This document shows, one piece after another, positions 4,983 to 63,572 of a stretch of DNA of 64,000 nt; the first letter of the stretch is position 1; each line of letters begins with the position of its first letter. The notes beneath the pieces were generated by a model. It made no database searches and was not told the DNA's origin. It saw only the letters and a program-made list of their open reading frames with translations. Both the position numbers and the translations under genes were made by a program. Source of the DNA: a virus; the IMG/VR virus record IMGVR_UViG_3300032257_000479, positions 1-64,000 of that record; one strand, given 5' to 3'.

Positions 4983-4988
4983 AAAACC

Positions 4989-4996
4989 CTATCGAA
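4989..4996 (-). promoter_or_regulatory. Putative late promoter -10 element TTCGATAG (leaderless start)
   Basis: CGATA followed by exactly 7 nt and then the ATG at 4982; no clear SD. Confidence 0.55.
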
Positions 4997-5004
4997 AATA
5001 ATCA

Positions 5005-5772
5005 TTATTTATCTGAGTTCTTCACTGCTCTAAGTGAGTTTAATAGGCATTGACGTTGAACTCGAAATGTTTTTGTTCTCCATTTTTTAGAGAAATTCTT
5101 ATAACTATCGTTAAAGTATGTCATTTTTCTACTATTTTTTCCTAAAGTTTGATGTGGCAAATGGACAATTTTGGCTTTGTAGTTCCACGCAAGACGACCT
5201 CCATCTTCAATTATCCTAAAACAGAAATCAGGGTCCTCAAAATATGCTGGGTTATAAACAATATCGAACATACCTATTTTCTCTGGAAGTGATCCAAGCA
5301 TAAGCATCCCGCCGCAGCCAACATAAGTGAATGGGTCATTTGGTTTTTTTGCCATTCTTACAGGGAAATGCCTACCATTCATCATCCATGCCTCAACTCC
5401 AACCACAGATGCTCCAGACTCTCTTAATACCGCATGGTGTTGCTCAAACCACCCCTCTTGGACATATTGGTCATTATCCAAGAACATTAAGTATTTGGGC
5501 TTATTTTCAATCTTTTTATACATTTCAAAACCATGATTTCGACCGCCGATAACCCCAAGATTTTCTGGACTTGCAAAAAACAAAACGTTATCTTTCTCTT
5601 CTGAGACTTCTTTAAGATATTCTGCAGATCCATCTGTAGACCCATTATCAATAGCTATTAAAAAAATATCATCTTCACAGGTATTTTTGTAAAGATGATC
5701 AATGAAACGTTTTGTCGTTTCAATCCCATTATATGAAAGCATAACTAATGCAGTTCTTTTATCTTGTTCCAT
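5005..5772 (-). CDS. Glycosyltransferase family 2 (GT-A, rhamnosyltransferase-like subgroup)
   Basis: MLSYNG, IDNGSTDGS, ENLGVIGGRNHG, FLDND (DxD), GMFD...YFEDPDFCFR. Confidence 0.9.
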   Translation of the reverse strand: MEQDKRTALVMLSYNGIETTKRFIDHLYKNTCEDDIFLIAIDNGSTDGSAEYLKEVSEEKDNVLFFASPENLGVIGGRNHGFEMYKKIENKPKYLMFLDNDQYVQEGWFEQHHAVLRESGASVVGVEAWMMNGRHFPVRMAKKPNDPFTYVGCGGMLMLGSLPEKIGMFDIVYNPAYFEDPDFCFRIIEDGGRLAWNYKAKIVHLPHQTLGKNSRKMTYFNDSYKNFSKKWRTKTFRVQRQCLLNSLRAVKNSDK

Positions 5773-5778
5773 TCGTGC

Positions 5779-5786
5779 TTATCGGC
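5779..5786 (-). promoter_or_regulatory. Putative late promoter -10 element GCCGATAA (leaderless start)
   Basis: Exact sigma28 -10 consensus; CGATA + 7 nt + ATG at 5772; TAGA sits 15 nt upstream; no SD. Confidence 0.65.
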
Positions 5787-5794
5787 AATATTGA

Positions 5795-61839: not shown

Positions 61840-62211
61840 TTAGGCGATGTTACCAGCAGTAATATCGTGTCCAACAGCGGCGCTTAGGTCTGCCCATGCC
61901 TGAGGAACGGTAACGCCCTCGTCTGTCAAATAAAGGTCAACAGAAGCGTAACTACTTCTATTGAGAACATGATTGTTCAATCGACGTACCGCCGAAAGGA
62001 AGCTAACAGGTGATTGGAATAGGTCCGCATTAATCTGGTAACTATTGAAAAACTCTGTTAAAAGGTCAACTTCTGGTTCAATCTCGTTGAGCTGAACAAT
62101 CGTGTAGACGGCCTCAAAGAGAAAGCCAACAGACGAAAGCACAGCGTTTCGAGCATTTGCGTAACTCGTCGCAATCGTAGCGTAGTCTGCTCCGTTGATT
62201 ACATTTGCCAT
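61840..62211 (-). CDS. Hypothetical protein, 123 aa, probably structural
   Basis: GAGGAG SD; directly upstream of the tube gene. Confidence 0.8.
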   Translation of the reverse strand: MANVINGADYATIATSYANARNAVLSSVGFLFEAVYTIVQLNEIEPEVDLLTEFFNSYQINADLFQSPVSFLSAVRRLNNHVLNRSSYASVDLYLTDEGVTVPQAWADLSAAVGHDITAGNIA

Positions 62212-62266
62212 ATTATCTATCTCCTCAAAGTTCTAAGAACTGCTGTATATACTTCATTTATTCGCA

Positions 62267-62291
62267 AGGACTCTACAAAGTCCTTCTTTTT
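62267..62291. terminator. Hairpin AAGGACT-ctacaa-AGTCCTT, with a T-rich tail on the + strand only
   Basis: 7-bp inverted repeat in a 160-bp intergenic region; working orientation unclear. Confidence 0.4.
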
Positions 62292-62371
62292 AACTTTACT
62301 GCTAATACAGTCAAGCTATTATTCAATTAATGAAATAATTAGCAAACTCCTTCTATGAAAAGATTAGAAAT

Positions 62372-63547
62372 TTAAAAACTATCTACAGCTATTTGAGTTT
62401 TTGATAATTTGGTCCTTTTTACAAGGTCGCTAATAGAATTAGTGAAACTATTCTTTGAGTATAATCGAGCTATTTTCGCCGATTCTTCAGATAGGGCCTT
62501 GAGTTTATCTGGTTCTTTTATTGCCCATTTATTCAATTCGGAAATACGAGAAGAAAGACCTTCCATAGAAATGACTGAAAATTCTTCTTCGTTCGCTCCA
62601 ATATAGTTTTCATGGCCTATCAACAAAAAGCTTGGATCATTAAAATGACTAAGTATTTCGCCTGAACGACCTGACATTATGCCCACAGGAATGCATCCGC
62701 ACGCCATTGCTTCAAGCATAGAGAGGCAGGAAGCCCCTTTTACGGATGTTTCCACAAAGAAGCTGTGAGACATGTATTCATCTCTCATATCCTCATCTGG
62801 TATAGACTCTTTTACTGAAATATATTTATCAGGTAATGATACATTTGAGGCATTATATCTATCCATAAGAAGATCGATATCGTAATCTCCTGGATCATAT
62901 AGGTTTGTGTGCAAATAGCCTTTTGCTTCAGGAACATCTGACATTGATTTTATGAATGCCCCAATATTTGAGGCTTGAGCATTTTTAGCGGAACACATGA
63001 AAGAAATATTTCTTTTTATTTCATTTTTTTCAAAAAATATATCATCTGGTCCCAAATTTATTTTTGTTATTTCCGCATTCAACAGTGCAGCAAGGGCTTT
63101 ATGTCCAAAATCATTTACTGAAACAATCGCATCTGCATACTCTAGTTGTTGCTTATGGTTTTCGTTTATAGGCAAACAATCTATAGCCAAAACTGATATC
63201 CATTTAAAGAAATTGGGAATCATAGCTTTTACTTCCCATATAAAATCTGTTTCCTTGTAATCACCAATACTTATAACAATATCAGGTTGAACTTTTTTCA
63301 TTAATTCATATATGGTTGCAGAAGCCTGAGAATCTGTTTCCATTGGATATATTACTGCTAATTTTTCATTGTTCTTTTCGTACCAATGGGCTCCGCCTTC
63401 TTCTGGTAAAAAGAATCCTTCATCATGGTGCCATGATGCAGTTGATACTTCATGGTTTTCTGATACTAATTTTTCAATAATTGCCGCATTCATTCTTCCG
63501 TTTCGGACTAATAAATATGGCGATGCGCTAACTGTAAGAATCTTCAT
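62372..63547 (-). CDS. GT-B fold, GT4-like glycosyltransferase (atypical motif), 391 aa
   Basis: MKILTVS, KVQPDIVISIGD, ADAIVSVNDFG, SCLSMLEAMACGCIPV; first Glu of Ex7E replaced by Gly. Confidence 0.8.
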   Translation of the reverse strand: MKILTVSASPYLLVRNGRMNAAIIEKLVSENHEVSTASWHHDEGFFLPEEGGAHWYEKNNEKLAVIYPMETDSQASATIYELMKKVQPDIVISIGDYKETDFIWEVKAMIPNFFKWISVLAIDCLPINENHKQQLEYADAIVSVNDFGHKALAALLNAEITKINLGPDDIFFEKNEIKRNISFMCSAKNAQASNIGAFIKSMSDVPEAKGYLHTNLYDPGDYDIDLLMDRYNASNVSLPDKYISVKESIPDEDMRDEYMSHSFFVETSVKGASCLSMLEAMACGCIPVGIMSGRSGEILSHFNDPSFLLIGHENYIGANEEEFSVISMEGLSSRISELNKWAIKEPDKLKALSEESAKIARLYSKNSFTNSISDLVKRTKLSKTQIAVDSF

Positions 63548-63564
63548 AAAAATCTCCTACAATA

Positions 63565-63572
63565 TTATCGAC
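63565..63572 (-). promoter_or_regulatory. Putative late promoter -10 element GTCGATAA
   Basis: Intergenic; the 7-nt rule puts +1 at A63558, the first base of the AGGAG SD. Confidence 0.6.

Follow-up and report, generated by a model that had tools for sequence, protein, structure and literature searches.

The class 3 flagellar promoters read by sigma-28 factors (FliA in Escherichia coli and Pseudomonas aeruginosa, SigD in Bacillus, WhiG in Streptomyces) are built from a −35 TAAA, a spacer of 15 nucleotides (nt) and the −10 element GCCGATAA. The late promoters of phage T4 carry TATAAATA at −10, have no −35 and are read by gp55, a sigma-family protein of the phage itself; gp28 and gp33-34 of phage SPO1 are comparable. 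A further point of reference is provided by leaderless genes, of which the cI gene of phage lambda, as transcribed from PRM, is an example. Here we examine a 64,000-nt stretch of DNA from a huge, uncultured marine phage (IMG/VR virus record IMGVR_UViG_3300032257_000479, positions 1 to 64,000; hereafter the window), in which the motif G-N-CGATA-(A/T) recurs a short distance before several start codons. Our conclusion, which we hold to be probable rather than secure, is that this motif defines a class of promoters most likely read by a phage-encoded factor of the sigma-28 family acting on the core RNA polymerase of the host.

In the leaderless genes of Actinobacteria and Deinococcus, the −10 box lies at a fixed 6–7 nt before the start codon (mycobacterial survey, PMC4633059). 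The jumbo phages phiKZ and AR9, whose start sites have been mapped, show no leaderless transcripts, the leaders of AR9 being 26–491 nt long (PMC8244752, PMC5312081). Factors of the gp33 and gp55 type occur in jumbo phages, and in a comparative survey the jumbo-phage group to which phage G belongs has no sigma factors (both PMC7824862). Our full-text literature searches returned no description of phage-encoded FliA/WhiG-type factors, nor of sigma-28-type leaderless phage promoters, and of how such uncultured huge phages schedule their genes almost nothing is known.

A 169.5-kb contig (working label G000), ~25% complete according to CheckV, supplies the window as its first 64 kb; almost all genes of this contig lie on the minus strand. 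PHROG matches point to a block of tail and giant-protein genes in the window, several glycosyltransferase genes among them. The relatives of the contig are complete phage genomes of 461–548 kb with terminal repeats; a protein search also returned a near-identical contig of 467 kb and relatives at 59–68%. For comparison we used the whole genome of the relative G001 (488 kb, 48% GC, ~55% protein identity) and the initial 300 kb of the more distant G003.

A genome-wide check of motif position had been set beforehand by the first-pass annotation, a reading of the window from its letters alone. Using 169 open reading frame (ORF) calls on the contig, we scanned every 5-mer at every offset before 142 gene starts, amounting to 57,344 tests. 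After the Shine-Dalgarno (SD) words, the strongest signals came from GATAA (offset 6, 8 genes) and CGATA (offset 7, 6 genes). The latter figure, six of 142 gene starts, compares with 0.13 expected (p 6e-9; 4e-4 after Bonferroni correction), and two of these genes lie beyond the window, at contig positions 72127 and 147137. Within the window, CGATA-N7-ATG is matched 9 times where 2.0 matches are expected, a count of at least 9 being reached in 0 of 100 shuffles. The motif is also strand- and context-specific: GNCGATA[AT] occurs 14 times in sense non-coding sequence of the contig and never in the antisense orientation, at a density of 2.16 per kb in sense non-coding against 0.18 per kb in sense coding sequence (12-fold). 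A logo built on 18 sites reads G-N-C-G-A-T-A-A-A, with G at −2 in 13 of the 18, the A following the pentamer in 12 and the next A in 11, and displays no strong element upstream of the box. The motif agrees with GCCGATAA at 6–7 of its 8 positions, the extended G included.

Presence of the box at offset 7 goes together with absence of an SD. SD pairing of the six genes is weak, from −3.8 to +0.3 kcal/mol against a genome median of −5.3, while boxes placed further upstream are followed by an SD. All six genes start with ATG, as do 10 of 12 in G001 and 9 of 9 in the glycosyltransferase alignment described below, the 5′ ends of the transcripts being predicted. A −10-type box fixed 6–8 nt before the start codon of a gene that lacks an SD is the signature of a leaderless gene. 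Four such sites had been listed in the window by the first-pass annotation, and their coordinates check (Table 1): all are true gene starts with weak SD energies, and in each of the long ORFs concerned (368, 255, 3234 and 1225 amino acids, aa) the ATG is the earliest start codon. The gaps in which they lie share the layout stop-N10/11-CGATA-N7-ATG over 22–23 nt, whereas neighbouring SD-led genes are separated by gaps of only 2–14 nt. The two further intergenic copies that it had reported are likewise confirmed, and at the one ending at 63572 the base 8 nt past CGATA is the A of AGGAG.

Table 1. Boxes of the CGATA class, predicted leaderless genes and a promoter of a second class in the window
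Feature	Position	Strand	Context
TTCGATAG box	4989-4996	-	Then 7 nt and ATG at 4982; 368-aa glycosyltransferase gene 3876-4982; 22-nt gap without SD
GCCGATAA box	5779-5786	-	Then 7 nt and ATG at 5772; 255-aa GT2 glycosyltransferase gene 5005-5772; 22-nt gap without SD
GTCGATAA box	15506-15513	-	Then 7 nt and ATG at 15499; 3234-aa gene 5795-15499 (9.7 kb); 22-nt gap without SD
GGCGATAA box	55664-55671	-	Then 7 nt and ATG at 55657; 1225-aa gene 51980-55657; 23-nt gap without SD
GTCGATAA box	63565-63572	-	18 nt 5′ of ATG at 63547; 391-aa glycosyltransferase gene; predicted start is the A of the SD AGGAG
GCCGATAT box	60694-60701	-	In 103-nt gap 5′ of 157-aa gene 60155-60628; 66 nt before SD-led ATG
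Three consecutive predicted leaderless genes	3876-15499	-	368-aa glycosyltransferase, 255-aa GT2 glycosyltransferase, 3234-aa protein; from ORF list, PHROG and weak SD energies
1225-aa gene, predicted leaderless	51980-55657	-	From ORF list, site coordinates and weak SD energy
TGCGATAT weak candidate box	1569-1576	-	After T-run, 24 nt before ATG at 1545; within the 3′ end of the ORF upstream
GTGA(A/T)-N12-TAnAAT copy	59414-59436	-	Upstream of 82-aa ORF 59132-59380, at the head of the tail gene block

The same arrangement is found in relatives. In G001 the histogram of CGATA offsets has its maxima at 7 and 8 (5 and 7 genes), with ~1 gene at other offsets, and the genes in these peaks lack an SD. 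The spacing from CGATA to ATG, which the first-pass annotation had put at exactly 7 nt, is so in this genome; among relatives it is 7–9 nt with a mode of 8. Members of the class in G001 include genes for a DNA polymerase III alpha-like protein (PHP and alpha-subunit N-terminal domains), Fic, a Dam-type methylase, a sulfotransferase and a glycosyltransferase. Two of its CGATA-N7-ATG genes, at 77716-78438 (−) and 85713-86513 (−), stand directly after tRNA genes, and for these two re-initiation behind an upstream ORF is thereby excluded. The tRNA T-arms, GGTTCAAATCC and GGTTCGAATCT, lie within 25 nt upstream of the two genes, one of which is sulfotransferase-like.

The clearest case of conservation is a 466-aa glycosyltransferase gene, compared across nine genomes at 47–65% protein identity, in which a hairpin and T-run are followed by G[CT]CGATA, 7–8 nt and ATG, with no SD. 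The exceptions are GCCGAAA in one genome and a spacing of 11 nt in this genome. Because a terminator precedes it, this gene needs a promoter of its own. The stable hairpins differ in sequence among the nine genomes, the −35 position falls in the non-conserved arm of the terminator, and the box is the sole conserved element in the last ~30 nt before the gene.

Orthologs of the 255-aa GT2 gene supply a larger sample. Among 61 non-redundant junctions with confident starts, obtained by a metagenome scan, CGATA lies 6–11 nt (mode 8) before the start in 23, a TATAAT-like hexamer lies at 4–9 nt in 12, and 2 contain an SD. The 23 CGATA-bearing junctions have C at −1 in 15 cases and G at −2 in 12, giving GCCGATA. 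We read the interchange of CGATA and TATAAT at this gene as a swap of one −10 element for another. Across the ortholog junctions (L091-L170 and L009-L017) CGATA, a TATAAT-like hexamer or a variant (CGATT, CGATG or AGATA) stands 6–9 nt before ATG, so that these junctions form a natural series of promoter-type swaps at a single gene. Elsewhere, CGATA-N7/8-ATG is kept before the 368-aa glycosyltransferase in five relatives (G001 and four more), and CGATA-N7..9-AGGAG(G) before the 391-aa glycosyltransferase in G001 (L082) and in L083. At gene 71810-72115, the G001 ortholog retains the box and has gained a 12-nt leader with GGAGG.

A gene for a FliA/WhiG-like sigma factor, for which the first-pass annotation had proposed a search, was found on the contig beyond the window, at 124922-125749 on the minus strand (L027:1006-1833:-). 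Its product of 275 aa is the sole sigma factor on the contig. Scored against 65 NCBIfam families, it is matched best by WhiG (178 bits, E 2e-52) and FliA_WhiG TIGR02479 (164.0 bits, E 4e-48), at about twice the scores of SigB/F/G. Pfam regions Sigma70_r2, r3 and r4 all score above their cut-offs and region 1.1 is absent, which is the architecture of a group 3 factor. The top six matches in the PDB are all sigma-28 proteins, among them WhiG 6pfv (E 3.6e-32), P. aeruginosa FliA 9wsf, E. coli FliA 6pmi and Aquifex FliA 1rp3, and the next match is SigF at 1e-13. G001 and G003 have orthologs (53% and 40% identity), and metagenomes contain 479 homologs (E <= 1e-10), many of them on contigs of 460–500 kb. 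The nearest named cellular homolog is FliA, ~40% identical; no homolog from a cultured phage exceeds 35% identity, and phage G is not among the matches.

In the open complex of P. aeruginosa FliA, GCCGATAA is read by R80, D87, D93 and R97, and region 4 contributes S224 and Q228 (PMC12784957, 2026). We therefore compared the residues of that complex that bear on GCCGATAA and TAAA, namely Y76, R80, R82, D87, D93, R97, H100, R101 and R104 together with S224 and Q228. The phage factor keeps R80, R82, D87, D93 and R97, as well as S224 and Q228 of region 4; Y76 is replaced by W, H100 by R and R101 by Q (as in WhiG), and R104 by N. In phage numbering, R97, D104, D110, R114, R117, S242 and Q246 are invariant in 26 homologs. 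The same structure places the box at (−15)GCCGATAA(−8), so that +1 lies 8 nt past CGATA (PMC12784957), and the distance from CGATA to the A of ATG in our genome equals this open-complex spacing to within one nt.

The sigma gene itself belongs to an operon, and ~1.8 kb upstream of it a GACGATAA box stands after a T-run (contig position 127571); in G001 the gene immediately upstream of the sigma gene has a GGCGATAA box before it. Positive autoregulation is possible, judging by these positions. The next gene downstream of the sigma factor encodes a macro-domain (ADP-ribose-binding) protein.

The proposal that a sigma-28-type −10 box gives rise to leaderless mRNAs is thus supported by the sigma gene, the enrichment, the conservation and the geometry. 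What we infer from these sequences regarding start sites, the reader of the box, leaderless translation and timing can be put as follows. G-N-CGATA-(A/T) would be the −10 element, and apparently the sole conserved element, of a promoter class read by host core RNA polymerase carrying the 275-aa phage factor, with transcription expected to start 7–8 nt past CGATA. A box 7–8 nt before ATG would yield an mRNA that begins with AUG, has no leader and does not need an SD, while a box further upstream would yield a transcript that starts at or just before a normal SD. The promoters of the window would then be internal starts within a long block of tail and glycosyltransferase genes.

How does this compare with the systems described above? 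The −10 element resembles the G(C)CGATA(A) of flagellar sigma-28 promoters, extended G included, the distance from the box to the predicted start resembles that in the P. aeruginosa fliC complex (PMC12784957), and the residues of cellular sigma-28 that contact the −10 and −35 are conserved. Unlike flagellar promoters, those of the phage lack the TAAA −35, and many of their targets are predicted to be leaderless. The factor, in contrast to cellular FliA, is encoded by the phage and shares only ~40% identity with its nearest cellular counterpart, and in place of flagellar genes its putative targets are glycosyltransferases of the phage, giant proteins of the tail region and assorted enzymes. As in T4 and SPO1, a phage sigma-family protein would redirect the core polymerase of the host to a short, −10-only box, small enough for tiny gaps between genes. 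However, T4 gp55 is minimal, highly diverged and dependent on gp33 and the sliding clamp, whereas here we find a full region 2-3-4 factor of the sigma-28 family; moreover, the leaders of T4 late mRNAs carry an SD. With known leaderless genes the phage genes have in common that a −10-type box stands a fixed, short way before an ATG without an SD, and relatives also use TATAAT-N6-ATG, but here the −10 is of the sigma-28 type and the setting is a huge phage.

There are three other explanations to consider. The first is that the boxes are promoters read by the flagellar sigma factor of the host (FliA or SigD), that the phage factor has some other role, and that expression depends on a motile host. 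The closeness of the box to the cellular sigma-28 −10 consensus, with GCCGATA in orthologs and GCCGATAA itself at 5779-5786, would suit this explanation, but every relative examined has, like the phage itself, a conserved sigma-28-like gene whose DNA-contact residues are invariant, and the canonical TAAA −35 of cellular promoters is missing. We regard it as unlikely. The first-pass annotation had left the choice between host FliA/WhiG and a phage factor undecided and had tied virion production to the motile stage of the host; the contig-encoded gene and its orthologs fit the second option, and since the phage encodes its own factor, neither dependence on host FliA nor a tie to motility is necessary.

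Similarly improbable, in our estimation, is that the box is a site for a different phage protein, whether another sigma-like factor or an activator, its likeness to the sigma-28 −10 being coincidental. Relatives do encode SigH-like, RpoD-like and second, diverged sigma-28-like factors, and the motif is not accompanied by a −35 box. Set against this are the agreement with the sigma-28 consensus noted above and the location of the box, which lies exactly at the −10 position of leaderless genes and is interchangeable with TATAAT; at −13 to −9 one would not expect a site for an activator. Least credible is that the element acts on RNA, as a non-SD ribosome-loading signal or as a site of RNase cleavage just 5′ of AUG in polycistronic transcripts: CGAUA does occupy the SD position 7–8 nt before AUG, and four window sites do lie in 22–23-nt gaps of operon-like arrays where read-through RNA must exist, but the same box also lies 18–45 nt upstream of genes with a normal SD, follows terminators and tRNA genes, is interchanged with TATAAT by orthologs, and pairs with the 3′ end of 16S rRNA so poorly (at the energies given for the six offset-7 genes) that we take this pairing to mean nothing.

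Several observations weigh against a promoter class read by the phage factor. The first concerns the −35. A canonical TAAA at a spacing of N14-17 is exact in 1 of the 18 sites (the first-pass annotation had noted only an approximation to it, TAGA at 5779), and it is missing although the sigma residues that read the −35 are conserved. Forms of TAAA with one mismatch occur in 8 of 18 sites against a background of 13%, a weak enrichment found by a post hoc test. Secondly, the score of 164.0 bits lies below the curated FliA_WhiG cut-off of 189.6 bits, as does that of the G001 ortholog (185.1), and the WhiG score of 178 bits is likewise just below its own. Thirdly, relatives hold up to four sigma-like genes, and the pairing of box and factor is made by resemblance only. 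Fourthly, the box in G003 lies mostly 20–40 nt upstream together with an SD, and 2 genes alone look leaderless. In the 22-nt gaps, moreover, read-through transcripts and re-initiation by terminating ribosomes could provide an alternative route of expression.

Two of the four main sites are also not conserved. At the 3234-aa gene, orthologs in G001, L097 and L100 lack the box, that in L094 has an SD, and that in L091 has GGCCGATAT 25 nt upstream. According to the first-pass annotation even this 9.7-kb gene would be translated leaderless; it has CGATA-N7-ATG and no SD here, but its box is not conserved in relatives. At the 1225-aa gene, the G001 ortholog has a GAGGAG SD and no box, so that one initiation signal has been exchanged for the other. 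In scans for relatives, neither the N-terminal part of the 1225-aa protein nor that of the 3234-aa protein retrieved any, and a scan with a 226-aa predicted leaderless gene was equally negative; because of the first two results the sites at 15513 and 55671 can be compared only via the flanks of other loci. Lastly, the major capsid gene (88681-89559) has no box, and the G001 class includes the polymerase, Fic and methylase genes mentioned above, so that the description of these promoters as late is unproven.

It is important to note that the CGATA class is not the only one in these genomes. A second class of promoter, GTGA(A/T)-N12-TAnAAT, is present in many copies in G001 and G003, and in the G001 histogram of TANNNT offsets there is a peak of 22 genes at 6, corresponding to TATAAT-N6-ATG, the classical leaderless signature. 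From these genes, standing beside the CGATA class, it appears that the phages make general use of leaderless starts with at least two promoter types. G001 also carries extra sigma-like genes at L032:16583-17383:-, L050:18139-18933:+ and L034:14537-15265:+, which are RpoD-region-2-like, SigH-like and a second, diverged FliA/WhiG-like gene, respectively; huge phages of this group may run a multi-sigma programme. At 159–169 kb of the contig, in its early region, small genes form an array in which a ...TAAGATGGGTG...CACCGA(T/A) unit stands ~38 nt before each SD-led ATG. These units have a CCGA(T) core in common with the sigma-28-type box, with A rather than G at −2.

A number of further candidates in the window were set aside. 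Of the two weaker sites proposed earlier, GACGATAA at 48225-48232 (−) is probably due to chance, its TAA being the stop codon of an upstream 70-aa ORF and the box being absent from the G001 ortholog, and that at 59036-59043 is not a CGATA box. We also attribute to chance a GACGATAA at 59380-59387, which abuts an ATG behind a strong AAGGAGA SD. The candidate at 1569-1576 is absent from the G001 ortholog. Other sense-strand matches to CGATA-N7-ATG, at 20400-20414 and 27262-27276, are internal to genes and out of frame. Downstream of the GCCGATAT box, the minus strand at 60629-60693 holds an inverted repeat, aaatcttcc-ttatt-ggaagaattt, followed by the SD-led gene. The predicted transcript starts just before this repeat, which may form a 5′ stem-loop.

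Four glycosyltransferase genes on the contig bear a box, which suggests that they are moron-like, self-contained units. A broader reading, which we offer as speculation and think rather unlikely as a whole, is that half-megabase phages run a separate channel of expression, in which their own sigma-28-type factor produces SD-free mRNAs starting with AUG that are translated when the phage shuts down or re-tunes SD-dependent initiation. Such a channel would serve, among others, the glycosyltransferases and the giant tail-region proteins, joined in relatives by enzymes that modify DNA or the host. Terminator, box and ATG, as one compact unit, would also form the joint of a portable cassette, and swaps of orthologs among CGATA, TATAAT and SD forms would thereby be explained.

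The annotation of gene starts and operons in these genomes is corrected by these results, because SD-based gene callers misplace leaderless starts. Together with its minimal leaderless promoter, which consists of a −10 only, the factor would constitute, if confirmed, a compact orthogonal expression module. For phages of this kind, our results offer a concrete and cheaply testable pairing of one phage sigma factor with one promoter box of 7–8 bp, and point to a flagellar-type sigma factor that viruses would have taken over for the expression of genes that have nothing to do with flagella.

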